64,000 bases of DNA from Thermoguttaceae bacterium (GTDB taxonomy: Bacteria; Planctomycetota; Planctomycetia; Pirellulales; Thermoguttaceae). Location: positions 166,191 through 230,190 of the forward strand of contig JBMNOP010000003.1 in NCBI GenBank assembly GCA_050943135.1, read 5' to 3'. The position numbers and the translations under genes were made by a program. Positions 2,671 to 61,528 of the stretch are shown in pieces. The first letter of the stretch is position 1, and the number at the start of each line of letters is the position of its first letter. Below the pieces are notes generated by a model. The model did no database searches. It saw only the letters and a list, made by a program, of their open reading frames with translations, and had not been told where the DNA came from.

Positions 2671-2711
2671 CCGAATCATTCACGGTACTCCATCATTTAG
2701 AAAGGCCCAAT

Positions 2712-17500: not shown

Positions 17501-18069
17501 TCGCCGAGCTCAGGAATCGCCTCGAAACCCGCGAAAAAGAGCTTGAACAGATGCGTTCCCTCTCGAACAAGCCCCCGGTCGTGATGGGGGGGATCCTTCT
17601 GATCCCGAAAGGCCTGTTGGACAAGAAACGGGGGATTCCGGCCAACACGGCCGATGCCGAAGCGCGCAAAGCCGTCGAGGCGATCGCGATGAACCTGGTC
17701 ATGGAAACCGAGAGATCGTTCGGCCACACGGTGATCGACGTTTCCGCCGAGAAATGCGGTTGGGACATCACCGCCAGGCCGACCGCGAAAAACCCGGACG
17801 GGTCCGCGAAAGAGGATCGCCACATCGAGGTCAAAGGACGCCGCAAAGATGCTCCGACGATACTGTTCACGCACAACGAGGTCGTTTACGCGATGAATCA
17901 GCAAGATAAGTTCATTTTGGCGATCGTTCTTGTCGACGGAGATAAAGTCGAAGGCCCCTTCTATCTCCGTTGTCCGTTCAGCCGGGAACCCGATTTCGGC
18001 GTCGCGAGCGAAAACCGTTACCTCGACATCCTTCTGGATATGGCGGTCGCCCCGGAAGAGACCCTGTAA
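14545..18069 (+). CDS. SNF2/DEAH-family superfamily-2 helicase (1174 aa) with a C-terminal DUF3883-like PD-(D/E)xK nuclease-like module
   Basis: PHQ motif; motif I DDPGAGKTIMAG; motif II VVADETHRL; motif III MMTATP; motif VI QRFGRIHRIGQ. The C-terminal 120 aa contain GWDI...HIEVKGRR (D...ExK), typical of the DUF3883/restriction-endonuclease-like fold. Confidence 0.85.
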   Translation: MLKLEEITKGIQIAGLVPGELVNVVSADSFGESLKITYSLASGGVSETLLNRSDEERLSKAEMGLAWSFDSDPGDFRRALEAFRIRLGFLFDRMTAIHSSLVEPLPHQISAVYDRMLKQNPLRFVLADDPGAGKTIMAGLLIKELLIRSDTQRILILVPGALVDQWQEEMLRKFGIRFETFISQGNGAGNFFNEQNLVILRLDQFARNEELKSALEDSTWDLVVADETHRLSAHRFSSSTTKKTKRYKLAELLARNSRHFLMMTATPHSGNNADFHLWLSLLDPDRFYLGSSPDEPAVPEVSDVMRRMVKEDLRKFDGSPLFPERRAETILFPLSEKERDLYGQVTEYVRSEMNRAERLQKQERNNLGFALTILQRRLASSPQAIYESLQRRRRFLEKDLQNRREHPEKYPRREPETAPSSDLRAVRVPFDLFAYDTEKEDDDFYDPDDEQNADYVVAERSIDEVEKEIETVDLLVAQAKKVVDSDEDCKWNELSKTLQKPQFVGPDGKRLKLIIFTEYRDTLDYLERKIKNLLGVPEAVLVIHGGIKLTERNEIQENFRNDPDVSILIATDAAGEGVNLQRAHLMINYDIPWNPNRLEQRFGRIHRIGQTERCFMWNMVAEGTREGEVFRRLFLKLEAAREKLGGRVFDILGKVFDKGKLNQLLIQAIMQKESPEDQNKINKEIDGTLDPAHLNRVIRENALVQQAFTPETLYSVKAEMDKAEARKLQPCYVRNFFTEAFQRYGGEIRRREEGRYELPFIPPAIRNNQKTLKKIGGAIAKKYDRICFEKEKIRVAKSGRQAEYLHPGHPLVRSLTDLILENHSALLKPGTVMFDPSDDGTEPSLIFMIDHSVTETLGGNEVSRRLQFVRIRPDGSVENAGWAPHLDLEPPSDEVLKIAEEVKKESWLNRDIEKLALDYAIPNLCTDHFQEVRQERRRHVDKTLRAVKERLTQAIKGLERRILVARDEVKRDVQIKVNLQNLEKTFAELRNRLETREKELEQMRSLSNKPPVVMGGILLIPKGLLDKKRGIPANTADAEARKAVEAIAMNLVMETERSFGHTVIDVSAEKCGWDITARPTAKNPDGSAKEDRHIEVKGRRKDAPTILFTHNEVVYAMNQQDKFILAIVLVDGDKVEGPFYLRCPFSREPDFGVASENRYLDILLDMAVAPEETL

Positions 18070-18091
18070 AAACCGAGTGTTGAAAACAAAA

Positions 18092-20998: not shown

Positions 20999-21002
20999 TC
21001 GC

Positions 21003-29000: not shown

Positions 29001-29701
29001 TTATGGACGTTGACCGTACCGAAGTTGCGAAAGATGCCGGCCCCGGAATAGAAGTCGGTCAGGGCGGCGCCCCCTTCGGTTTGCCCGAAATCGATCACGC
29101 TCCCTTCCAGGAGAACGAGCCCTTTGTAGCCGGAAGAACCGGTGCCGTTATTGACCAGTTGGGCGCCGGGAGCGATTGTCAGGGTGCCGAGCCCCTTTTG
29201 CCCCGAATCGACATACCCGACGGCCAACGAACCGCCGGAACCGATTTCGACCGAAGCGCCGGAGAGCGCGGTCAGCTTCGAGACGTTTTCGGCGCCCCAG
29301 GGTCCCATAACGTAGAGTGAACCGATGCCGGAAGGCCCTGCCTCGTTCCGTCCGACCCGCAACGTCGCGCCGGAGTTGATCTGCATCGTAACGGCTTCGG
29401 CGGGATTGAGCGAGGTTGAATCGGCGGTCAATTTTCCGATGACCGCGTCGACCCCGTTCGAGATGTTGACCGTCTGGCTCAGCGGTGAACCGTAAAGGCC
29501 GTAATTGTAGTTGGCATCGGAAAGATTGTTTGTTCCGATGAAAGAGGTCACGTCTCGGTTGCGAGCGACAGGGTCGGCGGCACGGGCTTCGCCGGTAATG
29601 AAGCCGGTCCCCTGAAACAGGAGGATGCCGCCGACAAAGAGACCGGATAACATTTGGGTGAAGCGATCTCTTTTACTGATACGTTCAACTCTTTTTTTCA
29701 T
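26078..29701 (-). CDS. Autotransporter (type Va) outer-membrane protein, 1207 aa, beta-helical passenger
   Basis: ATG at 29701 follows an AAGGAA ribosome-binding site. Signal peptide MKKRVERISKRDRFTQMLSGLFVGGILLF. The passenger domain has Gly/Thr/Asn-rich repeats. The C-terminal 280 aa have alternating hydrophobic beta-strand character and end in ...VAMSYTF (a terminal aromatic), typical of the autotransporter beta-barrel domain. Confidence 0.7.
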   Translation of the reverse strand: MKKRVERISKRDRFTQMLSGLFVGGILLFQGTGFITGEARAADPVARNRDVTSFIGTNNLSDANYNYGLYGSPLSQTVNISNGVDAVIGKLTADSTSLNPAEAVTMQINSGATLRVGRNEAGPSGIGSLYVMGPWGAENVSKLTALSGASVEIGSGGSLAVGYVDSGQKGLGTLTIAPGAQLVNNGTGSSGYKGLVLLEGSVIDFGQTEGGAALTDFYSGAGIFRNFGTVNVHNGASGSDAFIVSDYIDSDSTYGHGTLHVSGDALLGSSALSVFGTVKVGGNLDISSGSSEAVWGAVGTVQVDGLTSVYNDNSTTGSDLTVRSAASTVGGLWVKRFSDSFGTATGGALTLGTSSDKTAVSVLNVSGLDSKFHADGTRSAGGLYDLRLDDTLKNYGKINLDDKQGSGILFTGASSYTDTFGDEVEGVVGFNNESVGTIDADGDLRLYGVDRNREVSGHSALAMSNKGTINVAGDFDIDSDSEVEFTNTGKVTTKSMTVAGDLTVTNATGGTFTADEVTLDGGRLANAGTYTFNTLTLTDGTMSGTYTGSDSQEEESTIHPTVAVNGMIALDGTTEFAKGSSEHPTTLIINGTGGFQGGGHELSFGNTAVKNNGNLTAAALSADRVNFKSGASYEYNGTGTNLFGSDTTFASGATLVVDADNPLDVAAGKTLKMGATDSYSTIVFDIDGAEGETPLITLLPAGGTSAAAEIHGNIEIEDTYKSYTPGKREITLIKTSNDQSIYDIDAITVSGGASNNTLFTTRQGRVSDDKTSYLLGITNKGFSDFAETVNQRSVANGIDTLLRNPESISDELGDFITRVMDLESGTDPRTVGRVLDALSGANRANALMLAMTDPWRYSFDQLGWQTHRAYTPECTTCGSVFRGQMEYSGGEYYDDGMVYVDDGYPIGSVFGYNAMAPNSVWAAAHTMSFNARDDDNCDKYGITNTGISLGYDALNAPDAVLGLAFDYSQPYLYSSWEDVSQHIDQSNFNLGLYGRRDYWNGVSLTGYVGFGLQHMNSKRNVRMGGIDPDLEIADRLGAGNWYRSSNNGQSLAAAVKIARDMQMYNWCVFRPLVQFDTQQVWLEEAGEYGNAIALNYNKTDWNRTFVRAGFETEKNTQFVRLTSKFLYARQIAGDSFPEMTAYFAGDATGTSMTIYGVDLGKDYLDAGIGALGYLDCDYRWALSGNYDFVASEQSTAHVGTVAMSYTF

Positions 29702-30071
29702 TGTTCCTTCCTTGTTCGAACAGAGGACGTTGTCGGCACAAATCGAATGATTGACGACCTTTGCTTTCAAGTCCAATTCCCTCGTATCCTGAAATTCCTA
29801 AACCTAAATTTTCTACTCCCTTAATCTTCTATATCGGAGCAGATCGCCGGAATATTTGATAAAACCGTTAAATTTCTCTTAATTTTTCGTTTTTATCAAT
29901 CCGTTAAAGTTTAACATTTCGGGGAAAAGGGATTAAAACAACGATCCGGAGGAAGAAAAAGAGTAGCGCGGTCGCGCCCGGGTGGCCGGAGAGCGCAAAA
30001 AGGAACGCCGTTTTAAGTCGGGAAGGAAAAAATGGCTCTCTCTTTCGAAAAACAAGGGGGTATCGAGCCGG

Positions 30072-33596: not shown

Positions 33597-35477
33597 TCAT
33601 TGCGATTCTTTCGGTGTATTGTTAAGAAACTCGAACATTTTCGGAAGTGCCGAACGGAAGAAGACCCAGTTGTGTTCCCCTTCGCGAACCCGCAGGTCGA
33701 CCGAAAAACCGCGCTCTTTCATCAGGTTGTACAGGAGCCTGTTGCCGCGGAGCAGGATGTCTCGGTCACCGCAGTCGAGGTAGAAACGGGTGTTCCGCTT
33801 GTATTCGTCGGGAAACCAACGGGCGAGACGAAAGATGTTGGTCTCTTCGGCATACTCGGCGGAAGTTATCCCCTGATCGCCCTTCTTCCCGGATGTTCGG
33901 ACCTCTTTTCCCACGGCGGCGCTGATCGCGTAGCACGACGAAAAAAGTTCCGGATGACGAAGTGTCCAAAGAAGAGAACCGTACCCCCCCATCGACAGGC
34001 CGGCGACTGCCCAGTTTTCCCGTCCGGGAGCGGTACGGAACCTCTTTTCGATTTCCGGAATCAGTTCCCGAAGCATAAAGTCTTCGTAGCGCTCCCCCCC
34101 GTCGGGATTGTTGCGATACCAAGTCAGTTCGGCATCGGGACAGACGATGATTCGTTTCGCTTCGGGGCATCTCGAAAAGGATTGATCGGCATATTCCCTG
34201 AGCTGCCCCTGCTGAGGATTGATCCAAGTGGTGTGGTCGTCGGACGCGCCATGAAGCAGGTAGAGCGTCTTCCAGGGGCCGCCGAAGGTCAGGTAGTTCT
34301 TCGGCAGGTAGACGGTGTAACTGACCTCCCGGCCGAGAACCTCGCTTTGAATTTTTTGGTCTTCGAGAAGATGACTCGGCGAGGCCCCCGGTTTCGCGAC
34401 CAGGGACGACGTGATCCTTTGGAGGTTCTCTTGCGCCTCGGGATTTTCATCGATCGGCCCGTCCGAGAGCACGGCGGGTAAGAGATGTTTCCAGTAGAGG
34501 TTCAGGATCGGCTGGTAGTCGTTGCAGTCGGCGGTCGAGGCGATCACCATCTCTTTGTCGGGGATCATCACGCAGAACTGGCAGTACATTCCGTCACCGC
34601 GGTAAATGTTATGACGGCATCGCCAAAATTGAAAGCCGTATCCCTGGCACCAGTCGTTCTCGGGATCGTCGCCGTTCGAAACCTGCTTTTGGGTCGCCTG
34701 CTCAAACCACTCTTTCGGCAAGAGCTGTTTGCCGCCCCACTGGCCCTGATCGAGGACGAACTGCCCGAATTTCGCGATATCTTCGGTATACATGAAGAGA
34801 CCTTGGCCCCCGAGATTAACCCCGTCGGGCGAAGTTTCCCAGTAGGGACGCTTGATCCCGAGCGGTTCGAAAAGACGGGGGGTCAGCCAGTCGAGCGCTG
34901 TCTGGCCGGTCGCTTTCTGCAAAATGGCCGAAAGCATGTGACTGCCGGGGGTGTTGTACAGGAAATGGCTTCCCGGCGCGTGCGGGACCGGATGCGCCAG
35001 GAACGCTTTGGTCCAGGTCCCTTCCCGGGGCCGCTCGACCTCATCGTCGTGCCCGCACGACATGGTCAGCAGAGAGCGGACCGTCATATTTTTCAGGTTC
35101 TCGGAAGCGTCTGCCGGAACCTCGTCCGGAAAATAGTCGATCACCTTGTCGTCGAGCGAAAGTTTTCCCTCGTTTACGGCAAAACCGATGGCGGTCGAAG
35201 TAAAACTCTTCGTGAGCGAATAAAGAACGTGCGTCGTTTCGGCGGTGTGCGGCGCCCACCAACATTCGGCGATGACCTTCCCGTGACGAAGGATCATCAG
35301 GCTGTTCATCGCGTCGAAGTTCTGGTCAAGTTCGGTAATGAGTGCCGCGATCGACTCGGTCGCAACGCCTTCGGCTTCCGGCTTCGAACGGGGAAGCGGC
35401 CCCCGGGCATCTTGCGCAAAGACCGTAACCGACACCAGAAAAAAGAACAAAGAAAAGAAAGAACCGCATCGACTCAT
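33597..35477 (-). CDS. Secreted bifunctional serine hydrolase: N-terminal beta-lactamase-fold (SxxK) domain fused to C-terminal esterase (alpha/beta-hydrolase, esterase D/CE1-like)
   Basis: Signal peptide MSRCGSFFSLFFFLVSVTVFA. YSLTKSF is the S-x-x-K motif. The C-terminal half contains ...LHGASDD...AGLSMGG... (a GxSxG nucleophile elbow). Confidence 0.7.
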   Translation of the reverse strand: MSRCGSFFSLFFFLVSVTVFAQDARGPLPRSKPEAEGVATESIAALITELDQNFDAMNSLMILRHGKVIAECWWAPHTAETTHVLYSLTKSFTSTAIGFAVNEGKLSLDDKVIDYFPDEVPADASENLKNMTVRSLLTMSCGHDDEVERPREGTWTKAFLAHPVPHAPGSHFLYNTPGSHMLSAILQKATGQTALDWLTPRLFEPLGIKRPYWETSPDGVNLGGQGLFMYTEDIAKFGQFVLDQGQWGGKQLLPKEWFEQATQKQVSNGDDPENDWCQGYGFQFWRCRHNIYRGDGMYCQFCVMIPDKEMVIASTADCNDYQPILNLYWKHLLPAVLSDGPIDENPEAQENLQRITSSLVAKPGASPSHLLEDQKIQSEVLGREVSYTVYLPKNYLTFGGPWKTLYLLHGASDDHTTWINPQQGQLREYADQSFSRCPEAKRIIVCPDAELTWYRNNPDGGERYEDFMLRELIPEIEKRFRTAPGRENWAVAGLSMGGYGSLLWTLRHPELFSSCYAISAAVGKEVRTSGKKGDQGITSAEYAEETNIFRLARWFPDEYKRNTRFYLDCGDRDILLRGNRLLYNLMKERGFSVDLRVREGEHNWVFFRSALPKMFEFLNNTPKESQ

Positions 35478-35705
35478 CGTACACCCCGCCATATTATCTG
35501 TTTCGTGGAAAAATTTTCATTAAAACCGACCAATTTCACCCTTCCATTCTAAAGAAAAAGGCTCCCCGAAACAAGGGCCACGATCGGCACGATAACCTTG
35601 GCACCCCTTCGCAAAGAGACTTGAAAAAACGGGGTCTGCTGGCATAATAAGGTTCGGTGTCGTTTCCCAACGCTTTTTCAAAAGAATCGAGGATCCGGAG
35701 TTTCG

Positions 35706-38700
35706 ATGAGTCTGCCTAAACCGATACAAACCCGCCTTTCGTCCTTCCTGGGACGTTCTCCTCTGAAAAAGCGCTCTCCGCGCAGCGGGCGGCGCATGAA
35801 CGTCGAACAGCTCGAAGAGAGGCATCTTCTGGCGGTGGCCGCCGGTGCGTTTTCGCCGGAGATTCCCGCGCTCTTCGATTCAACGATGGTAACCGCTGCC
35901 GAGGTCATGGCGACGCAACAGGCGATCGACCCCGTGGCGCTGAACAGCAAAGTCGATTCCCTCTACGCCATTCACCTTGATTTCGACGGGCACACCACCT
36001 CGAACACCAATTGGAATCGCGTCTATACCGACGGCGCCGACATCGTCAGCCCACGTTTTACCCTCGACGGTGACACGTCCAAAACGTCTTTTACCGCTGC
36101 CGAAACCGCCGCCATCTACGAGATCTGGCTTCGGGTCGCCGAAGACTTCATGCCGTTCGACGTCAATGTGACGACGGTCGAACCGGCCGCGGAGGTTTTT
36201 GAGGCCGGGCGCGCACAACGTGTCGTCATCGGGGGGTCTTGCTATGATTGGTACCAAGGGGCGGCGGCGGGGATCTCCTGGCTCGGTTCGTTCAGTAAAA
36301 ACCAGGATGTGCCAAACTTCGTCTTTTCCGAAGTCCTCTACGGAAGCCTCAAGTATATCGCCGAGACGGTCACTCACGAGATGGGGCACGCCCTCGGGCT
36401 CAATCATAAAGGGAATTCCCAGGTCCCCGGTCAGTCCGAATACTACCAGGGAACCAACGGCTGGGCCCCGATCATGGGGACGGCCTATTATCAGGAACTC
36501 ACCCAGTGGAGCAAAGGGGAATATTACGGTGCAAACAGTACCGTCGACGAGCTCGCGGTGATTACCACGAATAACGGATTCGGCTATCGGGACGACGATC
36601 ACGCCGACTCGTTTGACGGGGCTACGGTCCTGACGATCACCGACGCCGCCGGAATGATTTCCGGGATCATCGAGCGGAATACCGATATTGACTGTTTCGT
36701 TTTCGAATCGGACGGCTCGCCACTCAGTTTTCTGGTCGGCGGAATCACCGGCCTGACGAACCTCGACACCCTGGTGAAAATCTATTCCGAAGATCGGCAG
36801 CTCCTGCACGTCGATGACCCGGCCGATCGCCTCGACGTGGAATTCCTTTTTACCGGAGGGGCGGGAACCTACTACATCACCGTCGAAGGGACGGGGCTCG
36901 AAACCGATTGGTCGGGGATCTATTCCGATTACGGGAGTCTCGGGGGGTACACGATCCGGGTCGGGTATCCCGAAAGTCTCGTCGTCACCACGCTCGACGA
37001 CACGATTGTTGACGACGGGGACCTCTCGCTCCGCGAGGCGATCCTTTTCGCGTTGGATCGAACCACGATCCTTTTTGACGAATCGCTCGCAGGGGGCGTG
37101 ATCACCCTCGGCGAAGGGGAAATTCAAGTCAACCGCGCTATCCGGGTCGACGCCTCGGCCATCGGAGGAATCACCATCGACGCCCAAGGGCTGTCCCGCG
37201 TTTTGGAGGTGACCGGAAGCGCCACCCTCGTTGGACTGACCGTCACCGGCGGGGCCGAAACGACCAGGGGTGCCGGGATCTACAACACGGGAAACGTCAC
37301 GCTCATCGACTGCGTCCTGAGAGAAAACATTGCCTCGGAACATGCCCACCACCTTGTCGGCGGGGGGGCGATCTACAACGACACGGGGGCAACGGCGAGC
37401 CTGATCGATTGCGAACTGACGGGGAACAAGGGGAATTTCGGCGGGGCAATCTATAACGTCGGTACGCTTCTTCTCGATCGAACCATGATTTCCGGTTCCG
37501 CCGCCTGGCAATGGAACGGCGGGGCGATTTATAACCGGGGAACCGTTCTCGGCACCGACTCTTGCTTTTCCGGAAACCAAGCGAAAGACTATTCCGGATC
37601 AATCGTCGGCGGGGGGGCGATCTACAATGCCGAAGGGGCCGAGGCTTCTTTCACGGCGACCGAGTTTCTTCAAAACATCGGAACGTTCGGCGGGGCGATC
37701 GTCAATTTCGGAACCTGCGCGCTCGATACGGTGTTGATGGACGGGAACACCATCTCGAGTTACCGTGGCGGGGCGGTCTACAATTATGCGCAACTGTCCG
37801 TAACCAACAGCACCTTTTCGGCCAACATTGCCCCGGCCGCGGAAAGCCTTCTGGTCGGCGGCGGGGCGATCTACAACGCGCAAACCGGAACCGCGACGAT
37901 CACCCAATCACTCTTCCACGACAACGCGGGGAATTTCGGCGGGGCGATTGTCAACGCCGGACAGATGACCATCACCGCCTCGACCGTGGCACGCAACTAC
38001 AGCAATACACGGGACGGGGGCGGAATCCTGAATGCCGGAACCCTGGAGATTACCAACACCCTGCTCGCCGAAAATGTTTCCAACGAGAGTCATCCCGACC
38101 TTTACGCCTACGCCGGAACCGTTACCGGTTCGTATAACCTCTCCTCGTTCGCCGACTGGGGCGAAGGGGCCGGAAACATCGTCTGGACCGGCGAGGGTCT
38201 CTTTCTCGATTCGGGGGAAAACCCGTTCACCCCGGCGCCCGGTTCGGCTGCGGTCGATGCCGGTTCAAACGCCCTGGTCCTTACCGAAACCGATCTTGCG
38301 GGGAATACCCGGATCTATAACCTTGCGGTCGATATCGGTGCGCTCGAATATTGCGGTACCGTTCCGAGAACGTTGCCGGCTCCGACCATCACCGCCGTGG
38401 TTTCGGCGGGCGGAAAGAGCCAGACGGTCCGTTGGTTACCCGTCACCGGTGCGGTAAGTTATCAGGTTTCGGTTCTCTGCGGAGGCATCACACAGACTTA
38501 CACGACGGAAGGGCTTTCGCAATGGTTCGACAACCTAACCTACGGAGCGGAGGCCGTCTACACCGTGCGGGCGATCGGGGACGGTTTGACGACCGTCGAT
38601 TCCGGGCCCTCGGAATCGTACGCCCGCTGTGTCTCTCCCTGCGATATCGACGGGGACGGGTTCATCGGACCGGGCGATTACGCGCTCTTTTCCTCGGTTT

Positions 38701-38843
38701 GGCTAACCGATACCGGCAGCGAAAACTGGGATCCGCAATCTGATATTGACGGGGACGGAACGGTCGGGCCGGGAGACTACGCGTTCCTGAGCGTCAACTG
38801 GTTAAAACGGATCGACGACGGAACGATCGTCTATCCGGGGTAA
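35706..38843 (+). CDS. Secreted mosaic protein: planctomycete-type N-terminal motif, metzincin Zn-protease domain, Pmp-like parallel beta-helix repeats, C-terminal dockerin repeats
   Basis: N-terminal RSGRRMNVEQLEERHLLA. HEMGHALGLNH matches the HExxHxxGxxH metzincin signature. There are nine or more GGAIYN / FGGAI(Y/V)N repeats. Two DIDGDG(F/T)(I/V)GPGDYA dockerin-like Ca-binding repeats are present. The antisense ORF 35880..37580 is rejected. Confidence 0.7.
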   Translation: MSLPKPIQTRLSSFLGRSPLKKRSPRSGRRMNVEQLEERHLLAVAAGAFSPEIPALFDSTMVTAAEVMATQQAIDPVALNSKVDSLYAIHLDFDGHTTSNTNWNRVYTDGADIVSPRFTLDGDTSKTSFTAAETAAIYEIWLRVAEDFMPFDVNVTTVEPAAEVFEAGRAQRVVIGGSCYDWYQGAAAGISWLGSFSKNQDVPNFVFSEVLYGSLKYIAETVTHEMGHALGLNHKGNSQVPGQSEYYQGTNGWAPIMGTAYYQELTQWSKGEYYGANSTVDELAVITTNNGFGYRDDDHADSFDGATVLTITDAAGMISGIIERNTDIDCFVFESDGSPLSFLVGGITGLTNLDTLVKIYSEDRQLLHVDDPADRLDVEFLFTGGAGTYYITVEGTGLETDWSGIYSDYGSLGGYTIRVGYPESLVVTTLDDTIVDDGDLSLREAILFALDRTTILFDESLAGGVITLGEGEIQVNRAIRVDASAIGGITIDAQGLSRVLEVTGSATLVGLTVTGGAETTRGAGIYNTGNVTLIDCVLRENIASEHAHHLVGGGAIYNDTGATASLIDCELTGNKGNFGGAIYNVGTLLLDRTMISGSAAWQWNGGAIYNRGTVLGTDSCFSGNQAKDYSGSIVGGGAIYNAEGAEASFTATEFLQNIGTFGGAIVNFGTCALDTVLMDGNTISSYRGGAVYNYAQLSVTNSTFSANIAPAAESLLVGGGAIYNAQTGTATITQSLFHDNAGNFGGAIVNAGQMTITASTVARNYSNTRDGGGILNAGTLEITNTLLAENVSNESHPDLYAYAGTVTGSYNLSSFADWGEGAGNIVWTGEGLFLDSGENPFTPAPGSAAVDAGSNALVLTETDLAGNTRIYNLAVDIGALEYCGTVPRTLPAPTITAVVSAGGKSQTVRWLPVTGAVSYQVSVLCGGITQTYTTEGLSQWFDNLTYGAEAVYTVRAIGDGLTTVDSGPSESYARCVSPCDIDGDGFIGPGDYALFSSVWLTDTGSENWDPQSDIDGDGTVGPGDYAFLSVNWLKRIDDGTIVYPG

Positions 38844-38933: not shown

Positions 38934-41900
38934 TCAGCGTGCCGCCTTCCGGACCGTGAAGCGATAAGTTCCGCCGCCGACCTCGTAAAGAAGTGCCGGT
39001 TTTCCGCGATCGGTCACCTTTTCGGCGGCCAGGCGAATCGATTCCGGAATTTTGTGATCGGCCAAGACCTCTTCCCCTTCGTCGTAAGGAACGAATATTT
39101 TTGCCCGGGTGTTATACGGGACCACGGCTTCGAATGTCAGTTCCTCGGTCTGAGGATCCCGATCCCATCGCGAGGCGATCCGGCCGTAAGGGGTGTCGAG
39201 ATGCGCGTCGACACTTCGGAGCGGCTCTTTTCCCGGAACGGCCAAGTCGCTCACGCGACAGTCCGGCGCAAGAGTCGATCGACGGAACCCCGGCGCCGAC
39301 GGAACCCCTCCGGCCGAGGGATACGGCGCGCCGTCGAGCCGGATCCCCGCAAGATACTGATAGAACCATGCCGAGACGTCGCCGAACATCACGTGGTTGC
39401 GCGACGAGCCTTCGCCCCAGTCCTCCCAGAGGGTGCCGGCACCGCGACGAATCCAATCGGCATAACAGGGCGAAGTTTCCTGCAAGACCATGCGGAGCGC
39501 CAGATCGGTTCTTCCCCCTTCACTCAAGGTACGGAGAATATATTTAGCTCCGAAGATTCCGCAATCGAAATGGGCATCGACCGCATGAAGACGGTCGAGC
39601 AGACGATCGAACACGGCCTTTTGTTCCTTTTCGGGCAGAGCGTCGACAAGGCCCTGATGAATCGGGCACGACTGTGCCGTCAGGCTTCCGTCGTCGCATT
39701 GACCCGTCGCGCCGTCGATCAAAACCCGGCAGTAATCGGCACGGATTCGGTCGGCAAGCGCGGCGTATTTCTCGGCGTCTTCGGTCTTGCCGAGCATTTT
39801 AGCCGTCTCGGCCGTGATCTTGGCGTCGACATAATAGTAACTGCTCGTGGTCACCTGGACCGACGGCATCTTCCGATAGGGGCACCAGTCCCCCAACCCG
39901 TGCGAGACGAGGCGGTCGGCGTCTTCGCGGGTGGTGAGATAATCGACATAGAGTTTCATGGCGTCGTAAGAAGTTTCGAGGATCCGCCGGTCGCCGCGAT
40001 AGACGAAAAGATGCCACGGGACGAGAATCAACGCGGAGTCCCAAGAGGGGCCGTTCCCCCAGGCGTATCCCCAGCCGCCGGTCGGAACGATCCCGGGGAG
40101 GTTCCCGTCGGGGCGTTGCTCGTCGCACAGGTCCCGAACCCACTTTTCGTAGGCGGCGCTGTTTTTCCAGTTATACATCGCCTGTTCACAGGCCAGTTGG
40201 GCGTCCCCGGTCCAACCGTTCTTTTCACGGTGCGGACAGTCGGTCGGGTACCCGTCGACGAAGTTCGCGCGGTACGACGAAAGGGTTGCCGCCTGAATGT
40301 CGTTGATCAGTCGGTTGGAGGTGGTAAAGGCTCCGTTTTCCGGAAACCCGTTCGCGACGACGCATGCGGTAAAATCTTCGGGGTTCGGGGCGGAACTTAA
40401 CCCTTTCACTTCCAGATATTGGAACCCGTGGTAGGTGAAACGCGGTTCGAAAACTTCGACCGGATTTCCCCCGGCAATGTAGAAGTCGGTCTGGAAACCG
40501 CCGGCTTCCCCGGCGAAATAGGCAGGCGAACCTTCAAGGAAATGGAGCGCAAGGTCGTTTCGTTCGATCCGGCCCTCTTTCAGGCGTTCGGAATAGCGGA
40601 GTCGGACGACCTTCCCCTTTTCGAGCCCTCGGAACTCGACCCGGCACCAGCCGGCGATGTTCCTGCCCAGGTCGACGATCCAGGTTTCCGGTTCTTTGGT
40701 CGGTTGTACCGACACGGCGGGAAACTCATCGACGATCACCGTGCCGGGGAAAAGGGACGAAGTGAGAAGACCACCCGGAGGATCGATCCGTTCGGCCTGC
40801 CCCAGTTTTTCTTGACAGAACCCGCCGTCAACGATTTCCCCTTGCCGAATGCAATCATAGATCAACGGGCTGGTCACGGTGTCCCAGGTCTCGTCGCTGG
40901 CGATCACCTCGGAAGTGCCGTCGTCATAATTAATATTCAGTTGGGCCAAAAGGCGGGGAGAACCGCGCCAGTGAGCCGCGTCGAAGTTCCAAGTCGCCGT
41001 CGATCGGACATCGTACCAGCCGTGTCCGAGGAGAACATCCAAGACGTGCGGGCCCCCTTCTTCGGTCAACCGGTCGGTCAGATCATACGCGGAATAGAGA
41101 ACGCGCCGATCGTACCGGGTCATGGAGGGGTCTAAAAGGCGGCCGGAAATCTTTTGGCCGTCGAGCGAGGCTTCGTAGAATCCCAACCCGCTGATGTAAA
41201 GCGTTGCCCGCGTGACCTTTTTATCGTTTGCCGTACGGAACGTTTTTTGAAATGCCGGAGAGATCCCGTCCGCGAAGCGGCGCAGTTTCCCCCATGGGGC
41301 GGCGTCAGGCGACCATAGCTCGGCTGCCTGCGGGAGCGATATTTCGCTTTCCTCAAGTTGATCCCAACCGTCATTCGGCTCGGAAAGGAGTTTCCAGGAA
41401 GCGTCGGATTTCAGTTCGAGAACCGTCTGTCCCGGAATCCCGCGCCCCGGCGTCACCCGGTCGATCGGAACAAGTTCGCGGATCTCGAGTTTCAGCAGGA
41501 TCGCCGGCTCGGTACCGTCGTCGGTTCGCATCTTGGCGGCCAAGAGATTCTTGCCGGGCCGGAGAAGTTCCGTGACATCGGCAACCCGCAAAAGGTCGGG
41601 ATTGAATACCATTCCGAAAGAGTGCGTCGCCGTTTTACCGTTCAAATGGATTTCGAAGGTTTTGTTTCCCGCGTAATGGAGGAGCGCCGTATATTTTTTG
41701 GCGTCGAGATCGGCCTGGGTGACATCCAGGTCGAACTCTTTCCGAACCAGTGGGGTTGCGCAATCCCGTCGGCCGATCCAGAAGACCCCGTCAAGGGGGG
41801 TCGGCCGACGAAGCCGTTCGGGTTGTGCGATCCATTTCCCCTGCCAGTCGGAAGGGGTCATGATTCCGGTGGTCCACGACGCAGGTCGGCTCCAGGGGGA

Positions 41901-42290
41901 AAGGTTTCCGTCCTGGTCTTTGATTCGGACTTTCCAGAAGACGTGCGTATCGGAACGGAGTGGCTTCCCTTCGTAGGGGATTTGAATCGACCGATCCGAA
42001 GCGACCCAGCCGGAATCCCAAAGGTCGGCTGCCTCGCCGTCAAGGGTGGCACGGTCGGAAGCGACCAGAATTCGATAAGCGGTCTGCTCGTAGCCGTATC
42101 CTCCGTCATTGGCGTCATTCTTCCAAGCCAGCCGGGGATTTTGTGTCTCGACGCCGATCGGGTTCGAGAGCATCTCGACGGTCAACCCGTCGGGGAAAAG
42201 GGAGGCCCCGTCGGCGCGGCCGACAGGCGAAAAACCGAGGCAAAAGGCGGAAAGGAGAAAAAGGAAAACATAGTTTCGAAGGCGGAACAT
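38934..42290 (-). CDS. Alpha-L-rhamnosidase (GH78), 1118 aa, secreted
   Basis: Signal peptide MFRLRNYVFLFLLSAFCLGFSPVGRA. LSNPIGVETQNPRLAWK...YRILVA is the characteristic GH78 N-terminal block. The size and downstream aromatic-rich catalytic (alpha/alpha)6 region are consistent with GH78. Confidence 0.7.
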   Translation of the reverse strand: MFRLRNYVFLFLLSAFCLGFSPVGRADGASLFPDGLTVEMLSNPIGVETQNPRLAWKNDANDGGYGYEQTAYRILVASDRATLDGEAADLWDSGWVASDRSIQIPYEGKPLRSDTHVFWKVRIKDQDGNLSPWSRPASWTTGIMTPSDWQGKWIAQPERLRRPTPLDGVFWIGRRDCATPLVRKEFDLDVTQADLDAKKYTALLHYAGNKTFEIHLNGKTATHSFGMVFNPDLLRVADVTELLRPGKNLLAAKMRTDDGTEPAILLKLEIRELVPIDRVTPGRGIPGQTVLELKSDASWKLLSEPNDGWDQLEESEISLPQAAELWSPDAAPWGKLRRFADGISPAFQKTFRTANDKKVTRATLYISGLGFYEASLDGQKISGRLLDPSMTRYDRRVLYSAYDLTDRLTEEGGPHVLDVLLGHGWYDVRSTATWNFDAAHWRGSPRLLAQLNINYDDGTSEVIASDETWDTVTSPLIYDCIRQGEIVDGGFCQEKLGQAERIDPPGGLLTSSLFPGTVIVDEFPAVSVQPTKEPETWIVDLGRNIAGWCRVEFRGLEKGKVVRLRYSERLKEGRIERNDLALHFLEGSPAYFAGEAGGFQTDFYIAGGNPVEVFEPRFTYHGFQYLEVKGLSSAPNPEDFTACVVANGFPENGAFTTSNRLINDIQAATLSSYRANFVDGYPTDCPHREKNGWTGDAQLACEQAMYNWKNSAAYEKWVRDLCDEQRPDGNLPGIVPTGGWGYAWGNGPSWDSALILVPWHLFVYRGDRRILETSYDAMKLYVDYLTTREDADRLVSHGLGDWCPYRKMPSVQVTTSSYYYVDAKITAETAKMLGKTEDAEKYAALADRIRADYCRVLIDGATGQCDDGSLTAQSCPIHQGLVDALPEKEQKAVFDRLLDRLHAVDAHFDCGIFGAKYILRTLSEGGRTDLALRMVLQETSPCYADWIRRGAGTLWEDWGEGSSRNHVMFGDVSAWFYQYLAGIRLDGAPYPSAGGVPSAPGFRRSTLAPDCRVSDLAVPGKEPLRSVDAHLDTPYGRIASRWDRDPQTEELTFEAVVPYNTRAKIFVPYDEGEEVLADHKIPESIRLAAEKVTDRGKPALLYEVGGGTYRFTVRKAAR

Positions 42291-43121: not shown

Positions 43122-44510
43122 ATGATTGCTATCCGTCGATTTTGCTTCTTATTCGTTTGCTTGGTCGGTTCGGTTGGCGCAACCTTGTGCGCCGACCCCA
43201 ACCCGGCCACAACCCCCGAGCCTTTCGAGGGGGAACGGTTCGACCGAATCTGTGATCGCATGAGTCAGGGAGACGTCGATCTTCTCTGGGTCGGCGACTC
43301 GATCATCAACGGCTTTGCCAACGGGGGCGGCAAGGAAATTTTCGATGAACGCTACTCGAGCCGTCGGCCGCTCAGTATCGCGATCAGTGGCATGCGGACC
43401 GGGCATGTCCTTTGGGAACTCGAAAACGCCCCGGTCGATCGGATCTCTCCGAAGATGGCGGTGGTCATGATCGGCACCAACAACGTCGGTCATGGAAAAT
43501 CGTCTCCCGAACAGACGGCCGAAGGAATCGAGGCGATCGTCAATCGCCTGAAACAACTCTATCCGCAGATGAAGATCCTCCTTCTCGAAGTATTCCCGCG
43601 CGACCCGAAACCGGAAGATGAGCTGAGGAAGGACGTCGAAAAGATCAACACACTGATCCGAAACCTCTATGGCGGCGACAAGGTCGGAAATGTCAAGCTT
43701 TACGGGATCAATGACCTCTTCCTGACCCCGACCGGGGAACTGACCCCGGAGATGATGCCCGATTTCCTCCATCCTTCCCCGGCAGCCTACGATATTTGCG
43801 GGAAAGCCTTGGAGCCGTTTATCATCGAAGGGCTCGGCGAGCGCCCGATGGAATCTGTCGGCGAACGGATCGATGGCGCCTGGATGGATCGGTTTAACGA
43901 GAAGAACAAACTTCTTACCGAAAACGATTATAAGATTCTCCTTCTCGGCGACTCGATCACCCATTACTGGGAAGAAGCGGCGTTCGACGGCGAAGAGGAT
44001 CTCCTGATCCCTCTCTGGAAGCGCTATTTTGAGGACCGTGGCGCCATCAACCTGGGAATCGCCGGCGATCAGACCCAAAACCTGGTTTGGCGGGTCGAGC
44101 ATTACGATTTTTCGAAGATTCGTCCGAAATTGGCGATTCTCCTGATCGGCGTTAACAACATTCCGACCGGTCATCCCTTCGAGGCGACGGCGTACGCGAC
44201 CCGTTACATCGTCAAAACGGTCCGAGAAAAGTGCCCCGGAATCAACATCATCGTTCTGAAATGTTTCCCCTACATGTGGATGGGAAAACGCGAATATCAA
44301 GAGATGGTCGATCAGTATAACGGACTGCTCGACTACTATTTCCGCGACCTGGAATATGTCGAGCTGGTCGACATCGGCGACATGTACCGCGGCGAAGACG
44401 GACTGGTCAACACCGACTTCTTCCCCGACCGGGTTCACCCAAACCGAGACGGTTACCTTCTTTGGGGGGAACGGATGAAAAAGATGGTCACCGAAAAATT
44501 GGGGGAATAA
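43122..44510 (+). CDS. Secreted tandem SGNH/GDSL-type esterase (paralogue of 2712..4145)
   Basis: Signal peptide MIAIRRFCFLFVCLVGSVGATLCA. The GDS blocks LLWVGDSIINGF and ILLLGDSITHYW are present. Domain order and spacing match the first paralogue. Confidence 0.7.
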   Translation: MIAIRRFCFLFVCLVGSVGATLCADPNPATTPEPFEGERFDRICDRMSQGDVDLLWVGDSIINGFANGGGKEIFDERYSSRRPLSIAISGMRTGHVLWELENAPVDRISPKMAVVMIGTNNVGHGKSSPEQTAEGIEAIVNRLKQLYPQMKILLLEVFPRDPKPEDELRKDVEKINTLIRNLYGGDKVGNVKLYGINDLFLTPTGELTPEMMPDFLHPSPAAYDICGKALEPFIIEGLGERPMESVGERIDGAWMDRFNEKNKLLTENDYKILLLGDSITHYWEEAAFDGEEDLLIPLWKRYFEDRGAINLGIAGDQTQNLVWRVEHYDFSKIRPKLAILLIGVNNIPTGHPFEATAYATRYIVKTVREKCPGINIIVLKCFPYMWMGKREYQEMVDQYNGLLDYYFRDLEYVELVDIGDMYRGEDGLVNTDFFPDRVHPNRDGYLLWGERMKKMVTEKLGE

Positions 44511-44553: not shown

Positions 44554-47079
44554 TTATTCGTAAATCAGGAACGCTTCACGGTATTTCATGAATCGGTCGA
44601 AATCTTCTTTCCAAACGGATTCGGCCACGTCGAGCGATGCCCCCTCTTTCATGAGGGTCAGGATCTCTTTGTTTAGCAGAAGATGGTTCGCGTTCCGGTC
44701 ATTGATCTTATCGGGATAAGAGGCCATCAACTCGCGCATCAGTGCCAGCCCCATCTTGACCGGCTCCAACGCATTGCGGTCGGTCAAGATGAATCGAATC
44801 CCCGAGATCTCCTTGTCTTGGAACGGGCGGGCGGTCGGGGTGTAGGTGATCGGTTCGAAACGGACCCCGGCAATCGGTTTTTCCGTGGTCGTGCGCCCCT
44901 CTTCGGCGACCAGAGCGTTCATCTTTTCGGCCAAAGCGGGCCCGTCGATCCATTCGGCCCCGATCAACTCAAAGGGGGTGTCGGTGCCGCGACCGACGGA
45001 ATAGCCGGTCCCCTCGGCCAGACAGACTCCGGGATAGAGGGTCGCGGCGGTCAGGCTGCGCATATTGGGGGAAGGATTGACCCACGGAAGGCCGGTCTGG
45101 TCAAAGTAGATCTCGCGGGTCCAGTTCAGAACAGGAACGACCGTCAGATTCAAGCGGAGTTTCTGTTTGTCATTGATCATCAGCGCGATCTCGCCGACGG
45201 TCATCCCATGGCGGACGGGAATCCGGTCAAAATTGATAAACGACTCTTCCCCGGGGTCGGCAAGAGGCCCGGCCGTCTGCAACCCGCTGATCGGGTTGAC
45301 CCGATCGAGGACCACAAAATCGAGCCCGTTGTCGGCCGCCGCCTGCATCGCCATCCCCATCGTGGAAATGTAGGTGTAGAAGCGTGCGCCGATATCTTGA
45401 ATGTCAAAGACGAGGGTGTCGATCCCTTCGAGCATCTCCGGGGTCGGACGACGGATTTCCCCGTAAAGACTGTAAACCGGAACTCCCGTTTCGGGATCCC
45501 GGGAATCGTCGATATTGGATTGTTCGAGTTTGCCGGCAATTCCGTGCTCCGGGCTAAAGAGAGCGACCAGGTCAACACCTGCCTGCTTCATCAACCGGCC
45601 TGTCGAGACCCCGGAACGGTCGATGCCGGTATGATTGGTGATCAGCCCAACCCGTCTGTCCCTCAGGAGCTCGAAACCGGTGTATTCCAGCGCATCGATC
45701 CCGTTGAGCGTGATTTTGCGCGGATAGGCGGATTTCGGCACGGAAAGGACATGACGCATCGCTTCGGCGTGGATCGCCTTGGCGTTAAAGGGGTCGCAGA
45801 TCGCATCGACGGCAATCGTACCGATCGTCGCGGCGCGGCGGTTCATCGCGTTATCGCGCTTTTTCGGATGGAGTCGGTTCCCGAGCAGGATCACAAAGAG
45901 GTCGTGGTCCGGATCGATCCAGAAAGCGGTACCGGTAAACCCGGTGTGTCCGAAGGCCGAAGGAGAGTAGTTCCAAGACCGAGCCGCGGTACCGGCCGAA
46001 CGGCGTTTCTCCCAGCCGAGCCCGTGAACCCCACCGGTCACCTGCCAGCGGGCCGTCCAGAGATGGCAAGTGTCGGGCGAAAGAACCCTCACTTTTTGAC
46101 CGCTCTCTTTGGTTAACGTCCCCTCGCCGAGCATCATCGACGCGAAAACCGCCAGGTCGGGCGCCGTGGTGAAAAGCCCGGCATTTCCGCCGTGTCCGCC
46201 GATCGCCCACGATTGCGGATCATGAACGACCCCCTTGATCCACCCGCGTTTTTCGTCGAATTCGGTGGTGACGCAACGGTCGAACCAGTCGGCGGCCGAG
46301 GCTTTTTGGTCTTCCGAAGCCTCGTCGAGTTTATCCTTCGGACGGAAGCCCGAGTCGAACATGCCGAGCGGACGGTAAATGTTCTCCTCGGCAAAATCAC
46401 CGAGTTTTTCCCCCGAGAGGACTTCGACCAGTTTCCCGAGAATGAGGAAACCCTGGCAGATATAGCGATAGGTCGTTCCGGTCGGTTTGAGAAGTGGCTC
46501 GGCCATGACGCGATCCCAAATCTCGTCGACGGAACCGGCACGATAGTTCGGGAACCAAACCGGATTGATTCCGGCCATATGTTTCAAACAGGAACGGATG
46601 GTAACATCTTCTTTGCCGTTCTGTGCAAACGCGGGCATGAAGCGGGCAATCGGATCGTCGAGCGCATATTTGTTTTGGTCGTAGAGCAGAGCCATCGAAG
46701 TCGCGGTCGCAACGCACTTGGTGATCGACGCCATATCGAAAACCGTGTCCAACTCCATCGGAAGGCGCTCGGGCTCGACCTGACGATCTCCGAACGCCTT
46801 CATGTAGGCGATCCCCGAGCGGCGTCCCACGGCAATCACGACGCCGGAAGTTTCTTCATTTTCCATCATCTCGTCGGCAACCGCGTCGATCCACTCGGTC
46901 AGGCGCGGATCAAAATTCAACGCTTCCGGTGATTTTATCGGAAGAGCGTAAGGCCCTGCTGCCGTCAGAAGCGAAAGACCGCTTAAAAAAAGAACTGCGA
47001 AGAAGAAATAAAACTTCGAACCCCTTGAAAACATCGCCACGATGTCCGCCTTTTTTCCTTGCTTACCACGTTTTACCAT
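44554..47079 (-). CDS. Secreted fusion protein: beta-lactamase-fold serine hydrolase (SxxK) + DUF1343 (NamZ-like exo-beta-N-acetylmuramidase) domain
   Basis: ATG at 47079 (MVKRGKQGKK...FFFAVLFLSGLSLLTAAG signal). ASITKCV is the SxxK motif. The C-terminal 430 aa carry the DUF1343 hallmarks (GIDAL...RVGLITNHTGI...LFSPEHGI...GVPVYSLYG...IDTLVFDIQDIGARFYTYIST). Confidence 0.75.
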   Translation of the reverse strand: MVKRGKQGKKADIVAMFSRGSKFYFFFAVLFLSGLSLLTAAGPYALPIKSPEALNFDPRLTEWIDAVADEMMENEETSGVVIAVGRRSGIAYMKAFGDRQVEPERLPMELDTVFDMASITKCVATATSMALLYDQNKYALDDPIARFMPAFAQNGKEDVTIRSCLKHMAGINPVWFPNYRAGSVDEIWDRVMAEPLLKPTGTTYRYICQGFLILGKLVEVLSGEKLGDFAEENIYRPLGMFDSGFRPKDKLDEASEDQKASAADWFDRCVTTEFDEKRGWIKGVVHDPQSWAIGGHGGNAGLFTTAPDLAVFASMMLGEGTLTKESGQKVRVLSPDTCHLWTARWQVTGGVHGLGWEKRRSAGTAARSWNYSPSAFGHTGFTGTAFWIDPDHDLFVILLGNRLHPKKRDNAMNRRAATIGTIAVDAICDPFNAKAIHAEAMRHVLSVPKSAYPRKITLNGIDALEYTGFELLRDRRVGLITNHTGIDRSGVSTGRLMKQAGVDLVALFSPEHGIAGKLEQSNIDDSRDPETGVPVYSLYGEIRRPTPEMLEGIDTLVFDIQDIGARFYTYISTMGMAMQAAADNGLDFVVLDRVNPISGLQTAGPLADPGEESFINFDRIPVRHGMTVGEIALMINDKQKLRLNLTVVPVLNWTREIYFDQTGLPWVNPSPNMRSLTAATLYPGVCLAEGTGYSVGRGTDTPFELIGAEWIDGPALAEKMNALVAEEGRTTTEKPIAGVRFEPITYTPTARPFQDKEISGIRFILTDRNALEPVKMGLALMRELMASYPDKINDRNANHLLLNKEILTLMKEGASLDVAESVWKEDFDRFMKYREAFLIYE

Positions 47080-47335
47080 GTTGAGACCTGTCCGAACGCA
47101 GAACCATCTTAATGGGAACAAATCTTTTTGTCCAGAGTACATCACGGTTTTGGGCAAGTTCGGGAAAACCGCTCTCGCAAGATCGAGAAGAACTTGTATT
47201 TTACCCAAAATACCATAAAATTTCCCCCAACACTTCCGAAAACCCTTGGAATTCGATTCGTAAAAGGGTATAAATAGAGGGGGCTGGGGGTCGTTAACCC
47301 GGTATTTTTACTCCATACCTACATGAGGGATTGTG

Positions 47336-48655: not shown

Positions 48656-48801
48656 TTCTTCAATTTGTCAATTTGATGGTATAACGAACCGAAATCTCTC
48701 GCTCTGACCGAGCGAGAGATTTCTTTGCCCACGCGCGCTTGGACTTTTATGAAATCATCCCGAATTTTAAAAATTTCAAGTGCGCTTTTTATGGTTTACC
48801 G

Positions 48802-61456: not shown

Positions 61457-61528
61457 TTCCCCTTGGGTTTTTCTCGAAAACCGGAGCAAAACAGAACGGT
61501 TGTTTGTTTTGCTCCATACCATTTTGCG

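Follow-up and report, generated by a model that had tools for sequence, protein, structure and literature searches.

The gene at positions 35706..38843 (+) of a 64,000-nucleotide stretch from a Thermoguttaceae bacterium (contig JBMNOP010000003.1 of assembly GCA_050943135.1; the whole stretch is called the window below) encodes a modular protein of 1045 amino acids. We consider it probable that this protein is an adamalysin-like zinc endopeptidase of a ruminant-gut Thermoguttaceae, exported and likely tethered to the cell surface, with the enzyme carried on a rigid, non-enzymatic stalk, a PPC domain serving in substrate handling, and a dockerin-type module providing calcium-dependent anchoring. 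All of the modules are of known types and the protein has already been deposited, and therefore it does not represent a new kind of system; only the particular combination of modules and its expansion in the ruminant gut are undescribed. The analysis provides an eight-part domain map for an unannotated family:

35706..38843 (+): whole gene, encoding a 1045-residue modular, putatively secreted metalloprotease (open reading frame; identical NCBI protein; locus kept in orthologues)
35706..35852 (+): N-terminal leader, residues 1-49 (sequence, charge, hydropathy, conservation)
35937..36605 (+): catalytic metzincin domain, residues ~78-300 (Pfam, Foldseek, conservation)
36606..36965 (+): PPC or collagen-binding-domain-type beta-sandwich, residues ~301-420 (Foldseek on the model)
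36978..38135 (+): right-handed parallel beta-helix, residues ~425-810, a PMP-type array of the CSLREA / Rhombotarget-A class
38136..38375 (+): choice-of-anchor Q domain, or C-terminal helix cap, residues ~811-890 (NF041518, conserved residues)
38382..38630 (+): Fibronectin type III (Fn3)-like beta-sandwich linker, residues ~893-975 (model strands, Foldseek)
38637..38840 (+): dockerin-type module, residues 978-1045 (two calcium-binding loops, family profile)

A preliminary description of the gene had named four modules: a planctomycete leader, a metzincin zinc site, an array of GGAIYN-type repeats, and a pair of dockerin-type calcium loops. All four are real, with motifs that occur far above chance and are conserved in 12 full-length relatives. 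By motif search, two arginines lie at residues 29-30, LEERHLLA at 36-43, and a single HEMGHALGLNH at 224-234. Nine GG[AG][ILV]xN motifs start at residues 553, 579, 605, 636, 662, 688, 719, 745 and 771, preceded by a degenerate tenth, GAGIYN, at 522, while DIDGDG occurs at 980 and 1013 and is followed each time by GPGDYA. When the residues of the protein were shuffled 5000 times, GGA[ILV], observed eight times, occurred on average 0.33 times and never more than four times; GG[AG][ILV].N, observed nine times, had a mean of 0.04; and the expectation for the zinc motif, the leader motif and the double calcium loop was essentially 0. The residues invariant in the 12 full-length relatives are E34, L36, E37, R39, L41, L42, H224, E225, H228, G231, H234, P255-G258 and S441-A445. 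To the four modules our analysis adds the Met-turn PIMG (255-258), the PPC sandwich (~301-420), an LSLREA cap together with the choice-of-anchor Q domain, and the Fn3 sandwich (~893-975).

The catalytic domain and its fused PPC sandwich

The catalytic domain is the most conserved module of the protein, with 85 of its 223 positions conserved. The zinc site HEMGHALGLNH (nucleotides 36375-36407) is followed by the Met-turn PIMG (nucleotides 36468-36479), which is invariant in the 12 full-length relatives, and by a signature QWSKGEY at residues 267-273. Across 74 relatives there is no variation at H224, E225, H228, H234 or G258, and conservation at M257 reaches at least 90%. Three Pfam models score above their cut-offs, namely Reprolysin_5 (30.2 bits, cut-off 27), Reprolysin_4 (24.3, cut-off 22) and Reprolysin_3 (23.5, cut-off 22.4), each matched over its C-terminal half only; eight to nine of the 12 relatives match as well. 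In the AlphaFold model of residues 1-425, the predicted local distance difference test (pLDDT) is 83 overall, and block means are mostly above 90 from residue 80 onwards. Foldseek matches the modelled catalytic domain to the snake-venom M12B enzymes 3k7n, 1bud, 6x5x and 2ero with a probability of 1.0. Thus the HExxH motif lies in a genuine metzincin protease domain, as the preliminary description had proposed, although the M10- or M6-like assignment suggested there gives way to an M12B type with an adamalysin fold. Based upon these residues and this fold, H224, H228 and H234 would bind zinc, with E225 acting as the general base and M257 supporting the site from the Met-turn.

The two other assignments were rejected on their scores. 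Peptidase_M10 reaches 14.2 bits against a cut-off of 24, over residues 220-237 only, and a weak match to an M6 domain was found in just one relative. A profile of one alignment (A2) searched against the PDB returned only Calx-beta domains, an artefact of the extra domains present in cyanobacterial relatives, and is uninformative on the protease.

Compared with the adamalysins and reprolysins (MEROPS M12B; for example acutolysin A, 1bud; the K-like protease, 3k7n; and VAP1, 2ero), the target shares the HExxHxxGxxH motif with a downstream Met-turn and matches Reprolysin_3, _4 and _5 above cut-off, and these enzymes are the best structural matches of its catalytic domain. Unlike them, it lacks disintegrin and Cys-rich domains, is obligately fused to a PPC sandwich, and has K in place of D after the third histidine. 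It also has no cysteine-switch prodomain, because residues 1-178 contain no cysteine; only a linker of ~30 residues separates the leader from the catalytic domain.

The sandwich that follows the protease matches the collagen-binding domains of ColG and ColH (ColG 1nqd and 1nqj) and the PPC domain of B. anthracis (5sv5), with target-normalised template modelling (TM) scores of 0.78-0.82, while the Pfam PPC model scores weakly on it (11.7 bits). As in the target, the sandwich of the clostridial collagenase ColG follows a zinc protease, and residues ~301-420 superpose on its collagen-binding domain. In contrast, the catalytic family of ColG is M9 and that of the target is adamalysin-like, and the two sandwiches share 15-18% identity. 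The target's sandwich is always fused to the catalytic domain, and relatives match query positions ~4-344 as one unit. From its fold and this obligate fusion, we infer that the PPC sandwich may help to hold or select protein substrates.

The extent of this unit was assessed by searching residues 75-425 against 1.84 billion cluster representatives, which gave 7,123 matches at E <= 1e-3 and 3,020 at E <= 1e-30. Among the matches listed, nearly all span the catalytic domain and the PPC sandwich as one unit, in proteins of 389-3,215 amino acids. Most hosts with a name belong to Pirellulales, Phycisphaerae or the filamentous cyanobacteria, and there the unit is joined to Calx-beta, RTX, FG-GAP or CARDB domains. 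The protease and PPC together therefore constitute a very large uncharacterised family, with more than 3,000 clusters at E <= 1e-30 and named genomes mainly from Planctomycetota and cyanobacteria. The consensus of this wider family is HExxHxxGxxHD, the adamalysin signature.

Several features of individual members were also noted. The codon of K235 (36408-36410) specifies a lysine that is uniform in the ruminant Thermoguttaceae clade; the other members of this family of more than 3,000 clusters retain the adamalysin-type aspartate, and the lysine next to the active site is a clade-specific change. Outside the usual range of hosts, the protease and PPC core occurs in an Oscillospiraceae metagenome-assembled genome (MAG) at 45% identity (L063, 8001-9014) and in a Candidatus Nealsonbacteria MAG at 38% identity (L079, 200-1621), either through horizontal transfer or through binning contamination. 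Two relatives of ~1200 amino acids, P0022 and P0023, carry two complete protease and PPC units per chain plus Calx-beta domains, with HExxH at ~235 and ~975 and QWSKGEY at ~278 and ~1020.

The beta-helix and its relation to Rhombotarget A and chlamydial Pmps

The AlphaFold model of residues 421-1045 (mean pLDDT 91) begins with a capping helix formed by the LSLREA motif, continues as a three-stranded right-handed helix to ~810 and a less regular segment, and ends with a seven-stranded sandwich at ~895-975 and two helices. Within the beta-helix, ten rungs are in register at residues 522-796, each consisting of GGAIYN, 8-10 further residues, and then a hydrophobic-x-x-N motif; the canonical FxxN is found in four rungs, and five hydrophobic-x-x-N variants lie in register with it. 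The motifs are spaced 26/26/31 residues apart, which yields a super-repeat of 83 amino acids containing three rungs. The three super-repeats are 31-45% identical in amino acids and 47-51% identical in DNA, and a tandem-repeat search of the DNA over the open reading frame detected nothing. Thus the duplication appears to be old rather than a recent expansion. The array, reported earlier as nine or more repeats, comprises nine plus one degenerate copy and is recognised by Chlam_PMP (PF02415) at 26 bits against a cut-off of 20.6, rather than as generic beta-helix only; the best relative reaches E 1.8e-16.

The N-terminal cap motif LSLREA lies at residues 440-445, with L replacing the C of CSLREA, and SLREA is invariant in 33 relatives. 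The best solved match of the modelled beta-helix is Rhombotarget A (RbtA) of Acinetobacter baumannii (9cdu/9cdv, E 5e-6). RbtA, the first of its class with a solved structure, is described as a cell-surface protein of unknown function (PMC12643943), and type II secretion in Acinetobacter exports a CSLREA-domain protein (PMC9245377). The target resembles RbtA and the CSLREA proteins (TIGR04214, TIGR04212; 9cdu, 9cdv) in having an xSLREA cap followed by a PMP-type parallel beta-helix, and like RbtA it may be a secreted cell-surface protein. Unlike RbtA, with which it shares 14-17% identity, its cassette is internal, behind a protease, and it ends in a dockerin-type module, has L for the cap cysteine, and lacks a GlyGly-CTERM rhombosortase signal. 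The Rhombotarget A equivalog model TIGR04212 scores 22.3 bits against a cut-off of 295.

The helix is closed at its C-terminal end by the choice-of-anchor Q domain, which NF041518 matches at residues 842-882 with 35.9 bits (cut-off 25) and in all 12 relatives (best E 1.1e-11). By its NCBIfam definition, this domain precedes interchangeable anchoring modules. The Fn3 sandwich behind it has seven strands in the model and matches many Fn3 domains by Foldseek (target-normalised TM 0.6-0.73), and one of the 12 relatives has a Pfam fn3 match. Together, the LSLREA-capped PMP-type helix of ~15 rungs, the choice-of-anchor Q domain and the Fn3 sandwich would form a rigid stalk or binding surface and not a second enzyme.

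A different function for the beta-helix, that of a lyase, hydrolase or epimerase, would make the protein a bifunctional enzyme in which a protease and a glycanase together attack glycoproteins or the plant cell-wall matrix. The gene does lie among glycan-active genes (GH78 rhamnosidase, GDSL esterases, GH32/43-like, GH5 cellulase), in an arrangement that is kept in orthologues, but the adjacent genes are on opposite strands and hence form no operon with the target. Furthermore, no carbohydrate-active enzyme (CAZyme) or Beta_helix Pfam family matches the target. The conservation pattern bears on this directly: 38 rung positions (501-810) are conserved in at least 11 of the 12 relatives, and none of them is Asp, Glu, Lys, Arg or His. 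Conserved charged residues are confined to the caps, with D432, D437, R443, E444, D482 and R498 at the N-terminal end and D851, D863, R869, D876 and E881 in the anchor-Q domain. The absence of any conserved charged residue or histidine from the rungs thus favours a structural or binding helix over an enzyme, and we regard the bifunctional enzyme as very unlikely.

The resemblance of the repeats to those of the chlamydial polymorphic membrane proteins (Pmps) had led to the proposal of a link within the Planctomycetes-Verrucomicrobia-Chlamydiae (PVC) superphylum. In the corresponding alternative that we considered, the array would be vertically related to chlamydial Pmps and the protein would be a Pmp-like adhesin acting via GGA(I/L/V) and FxxN. 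Like the Pmps (PF02415 + PF07548 + PF03797), the target has GGA(I/L/V) rungs followed by FxxN or a hydrophobic variant, on a triangular beta-helix; both tetrapeptide types are in register, the Chlam_PMP score is above cut-off (with the E-value of the best family member as given above), and Planctomycetota and Chlamydiota belong to one superphylum in the established taxonomy. Unlike the Pmps, it lacks the barrel and the middle domain and has a planctomycete leader instead of type V secretion. No match in the target to the autotransporter barrel (PF03797) or to the Pmp middle domain appeared at E up to 1, in agreement with the preliminary description, which had reported no barrel; the C-terminus consists of the Fn3 sandwich and the dockerin-type module.

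The distribution of the repeat class also argues against descent from a common PVC ancestor. Among PF02415 proteins in UniProt, 443 of 1,448 are chlamydial and almost 200 are non-bacterial, and a Chlamydia-specific long-repeat hidden Markov model (Cervantes et al. 2024) is reported to be almost exclusive to Chlamydia (PMC11166332). Beta-helices of the GGA(I/L/V)/FxxN type were already known from Trichomonas, Methanobrevibacter and a planctomycete of the Phycisphaerae; the motifs in them are structural and buried, which calls into question the adhesion role proposed for them (PMC10715098). In a search with residues 421-890, the matches listed were 27-38% identical and came from other Thermoguttaceae, unclassified gut bacteria, Methanosphaera and Methanobacterium; their source labels included "CSLREA domain-containing", "outer membrane repeat protein" and "autotransporter family porin", and none was chlamydial. 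This search listed proteins of up to ~820 amino acids, omitted known full-length paralogues, and served for taxonomic spread only. The top-ranked solved structures, a phage receptor-binding protein, the Bordetella Vag8 passenger and gammaproteobacterial RbtA, are likewise all non-chlamydial. Because this repeat type is widespread outside Chlamydiae, it is no mark of kinship, and the array is a member of a widespread repeat class rather than evidence of PVC-specific inheritance. Thus the proposed superphylum link is not supported, a Pmp homologue by PVC descent is extremely improbable, and a tempting over-reading can be corrected: PMP-type repeats do not signal kinship with Chlamydia.

Leader, dockerin-type module and module shuffling

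Export and anchoring of the protease on its stalk would depend on the two ends of the protein. At the N-terminus, the planctomycete extracellular motif RRMNVEQLEERHLLA occupies residues 29-43 (nucleotides 35790-35834) and fits the published consensus RRLxxExLExRxLLA at all specified positions save one, where L is replaced by M, in line with the leader motif recognised earlier. This planctomycete cell-surface signal motif is credited in PMC8567305 to Studholme et al. 2004. In Tuwongella immobilis, 52 proteins carry a related motif, 20 of which were detected by proteomics, 8 of them only in the sodium dodecyl sulfate (envelope) fraction (PMC8567305). In our family, the motif is invariant in the 12 full-length relatives and N-terminal in 41 of 47 relatives. 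Residues 1-33 are basic, with a net charge of +9, and the sole hydrophobic stretch of the leader, LLAVAAGAF, lies inside 11 uncharged residues; the leader is disordered in the AlphaFold model. If the leader is cleaved, a tentative site would be AGA|F at residues 48/49. The basic leader with its motif and the ensuing LLAVAAGAF may thus direct export across the cytoplasmic membrane as a planctomycete-specific signal of cell-surface proteins.

Two other interpretations of the N-terminus were considered and set aside. A twin-arginine translocation (Tat) signal was rejected since TAT_signal gives no match at E up to 1 and the arginine pair is separated from the hydrophobic stretch by ten residues, three of them acidic; TAT_signal does match a neighbouring oxidoreductase. 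A start at M31 was rejected since it would lose the two arginines and the basic n-region, both part of the consensus that is conserved; in orthologues, too, the motif is preceded by 10-55 residues.

A different route to the surface is represented elsewhere in the window. A classical type Va autotransporter of ~1200 amino acids (26078-29776, -; PF03797 95 bits) lies 6 kb from the target. Its Sec signal is long and of the ordinary kind, Pfam recognises no passenger in it, and GGA motifs are absent. It adjoins CsrA and TatD, also in the orthologous loci. This planctomycete therefore uses both kinds of signal, and its PMP-type helices are separate from the barrel-type autotransporters that it possesses.

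At the C-terminus, two 12-residue calcium loops, D980-D991 and D1013-D1024, have Asp at positions 1, 3, 5 and 12 (D980, D982, D984, D991; D1013, D1015, D1017, D1024). Their starts are 33 residues apart, and each loop enters a helix (989-996 and 1022-1030 in the model). The target's own module is divergent, with GPGDY in place of the SGxDR of the family. Dockerin_1 matches nine of the 12 relatives (best E 2.7e-9), and a profile of 17 family modules finds solved dockerins as its best matches over the full length (8x39/8x3a, 2e-8; 2y3n_B, 2.4e-7; 2ccl_B/1ohz_B, ~2e-5). The earlier identification of double calcium-loop repeats thus stands, while their identity as a dockerin is sub-threshold for the target itself and secured at the family level only. 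This module may anchor the protein to a cohesin-like partner or to the cell envelope.

The combination of the two ends recurs throughout a family of paralogues. In a scan of one genome per species, full-length relatives were found only in planctomycete MAGs from the ruminant gastro-intestinal tract, of the RUG and RGIG series (goat and yak duodenum, omasum, buffalo rumen), often with several paralogues per genome; the best representative is 56% identical. Members differ in the order and number of their internal modules:

Leader, protease, PPC, helix, Fn3, dockerin: the target, P0002-P0007, P0018 and P0019
Leader, helix, protease, PPC, helix, dockerin (~1000 amino acids): P0010, P0011 and P0013-P0016
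Protease preceded by two helices and followed by one: P0009, with which P0017 agrees as far as it extends
One protease, then three helices: P0008
Two or three helices and no protease: P0024, P0028, P0031, P0037 and P0040

The leader is kept in nearly all shuffled members and the dockerin in most, with three more distant full-length relatives lacking the dockerin. In members with a protease the HExxH core is preserved, in most of them as part of the complete HExxHxxGxxH. The paralogues form a lineage-specific family that retains the leader and dockerin and varies by duplication, reordering or loss of its protease and beta-helix cassettes. Thus, in ruminant-gut Thermoguttaceae, cassettes of the protease and of the RbtA-like helix have multiplied and changed order within a frame of conserved leader and conserved dockerin.

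Several observations weigh against an exported, anchored adamalysin-like protease on an RbtA-like stalk. With respect to catalysis, the likeness to M12B is at the level of fold and motif only (target-normalised TM 0.47-0.51, 13-19% identity), a phmmer search of the PDB with the whole protein gave nothing better than E 0.28, and the third histidine is followed by K235 and not by the adamalysin D. For export, the hydrophobic stretch of the leader is only 9-11 residues long, and Pfam Planc_extracel (PF07595) reaches 18 bits, under its cut-off of 25.5. In the stalk, CSLREA_Nterm (TIGR04214) scores 20.8 bits, under its cut-off of 25. At the C-terminus, Dockerin_1 scores 19.2 bits in the target, under its cut-off of 22.9, and calmodulin EF-hand pairs match the family profile nearly as well as dockerins do, from 1.7e-6. 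Finally, no cohesin was found among 30 window proteins scanned with Pfam (the target and 29 others), nor, in precomputed Pfam matches, within +/-10 kb of two orthologues. The check for a cognate cohesin that the preliminary description had called for was thus negative in both places. A six-frame motif scan of the window likewise found no other dockerin, leader or PMP protein.

These last points bear on what the C-terminal module does, and two alternatives to a protein anchored through it can be weighed. First, the module could be a calcium-dependent EF-hand pair that stabilises the protein or binds the envelope, rather than a cohesin-binding dockerin, with the protein released or otherwise held at the surface. 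The near-equal calmodulin matches, the sub-threshold Dockerin_1 score and the negative cohesin scans would all fit such a pair, as would the absence of the module from three of the 12 full-length relatives. Yet dockerins are the best and the only full-length PDB matches, and the 33-residue spacing, the Asp residues at positions 1, 3, 5 and 12, and the helix after each loop follow the dockerin pattern. The choice-of-anchor Q domain upstream, by definition one that precedes interchangeable anchoring modules, also argues for an anchor. We consider the EF-hand pair possible, though doubtful.

Second, the protein could be a component of a cellulosome-like extracellular proteolytic complex, in which its dockerin binds the cohesin of a scaffold or adaptor and the protease joins its helix-only paralogues. 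Such a "planctosome" has been proposed for freshwater Planctomycetes, with cohesin adaptors as docking sites for Reprolysin_4-like endopeptidases that carry dockerins (Andrei et al. 2019, PMC6461901), and dockerin expansions are on record in kelp-associated Planctomycetes (PMC5264255). As in the planctosome of the freshwater Nemodlikiaceae (PMC6461901), the target would be an extracellular M12B reprolysin-like endopeptidase with a dockerin in a planctomycete, and this published pairing of peptidase and dockerin lends the alternative support. The retention of the dockerin across shuffled paralogues, with and without a protease, and the full-length matches of the family profile to solved dockerins point in the same direction. 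By analogy, the target family fits the enzyme side of the planctosome scheme. Unlike our window and orthologue loci, in which the scans found no cohesin, the planctosome model has identified cohesin-bearing adaptor and anchor proteins. The target family also differs in adding PPC, an RbtA-like helix, choice-of-anchor Q and Fn3, and in belonging to ruminant-gut Thermoguttaceae. Moreover, the planctosome is itself hypothetical, and the target's dockerin, with its GPGDY for SGxDR, falls under the Pfam cut-off. A planctosome component thus seems unlikely.

A broader version of this idea, in which the whole leader-plus-dockerin set (the protease with its PPC, and one to three RbtA-like cassettes) supplies the subunits of an extracellular complex assembled by cohesin and dockerin in ruminant-gut Thermoguttaceae, strikes us as rather improbable. 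If true, an anaerobic planctomycete of the gut would possess a proteolytic planctosome, comparable with the cellulosomes that rumen Firmicutes build. Should a cohesin partner exist, this family would offer a case on which to test the unproven planctosome hypothesis and the way in which gut planctomycetes degrade proteins.

The gene and its neighbourhood

The open reading frame at 35706..38843 (+) begins with an ATG, the earliest possible start codon past the upstream in-frame stop; its strand, start and length of 1045 residues had been given exactly in the preliminary description. A 100% identical protein from a Thermoguttaceae MAG, encoded on a contig of 295 kb, is already deposited in NCBI under a generic name, choice-of-anchor Q. 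Thermoguttaceae is a family within Planctomycetota, of which cultured isolates have come from anaerobic digesters (PMC11929135). The gene is monocistronic, because its neighbours are on the opposite strand, the upstream gene being divergent and the downstream gene convergent. The divergent intergenic region of 213 bp holds one further feature:

35621..35648 (+): promoter-like site TTGAAA-16-CATAAT with a TG extension, 58 nucleotides upstream of the ATG (consensus match only)

Promoter-like sites in this 213-bp region are not more frequent than in shuffles (3 found, against 1.5 +/- 1.3 expected). Two positional orthologues, 53% and 58% identical to the target, share its position, orientation and gene order. 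The order that is kept runs from a beta-lactamase/esterase fusion (-) through the target (+), a GH78 rhamnosidase (-) and a double GDSL esterase (+) to a beta-lactamase/NamZ fusion (-).

Enzymes for plant glycans are abundant nearby, at 38934-42290 (-), 2565-4145 (+), 43122-44510 (+), 48739-50901 (+) and 61463-62602 (+). The set comprises a GH78 alpha-L-rhamnosidase, two tandem-GDSL esterases, a GH32/GH43-like protein with a laminin-G domain, and a GH5 cellulase. A neighbourhood this rich in glycan enzymes is consistent with a plant-fibre-associated gut lifestyle. Two fusion enzymes of unusual make-up flank the target region, at 33597-35492 (-) and 44554-47208 (-), and both are kept in the orthologous loci. 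The first joins a beta-lactamase fold to an esterase (PF00144 + PF00756), and the second joins a beta-lactamase fold to the exo-beta-N-acetylmuramidase NamZ; they may have a role in the salvage of peptidoglycan or of glycan side chains.

Further from the gene, the window contains a complete Hma (helicase-methylase-ATPase) anti-phage defence system, made up of three large co-directional genes at 14545-23870 (+). These encode HmaA (1566 bits; an SNF2 helicase with NOV_C), HmaB (1555 bits; a DUF1156 adenine methylase) and HmaC (1222 bits; a DUF499 ATPase). A helix-turn-helix regulator with WYL/WCX domains is encoded at 56913-58130 (+), beside oxidoreductase genes; regulators of this type are often tied to defence or DNA-damage loci.

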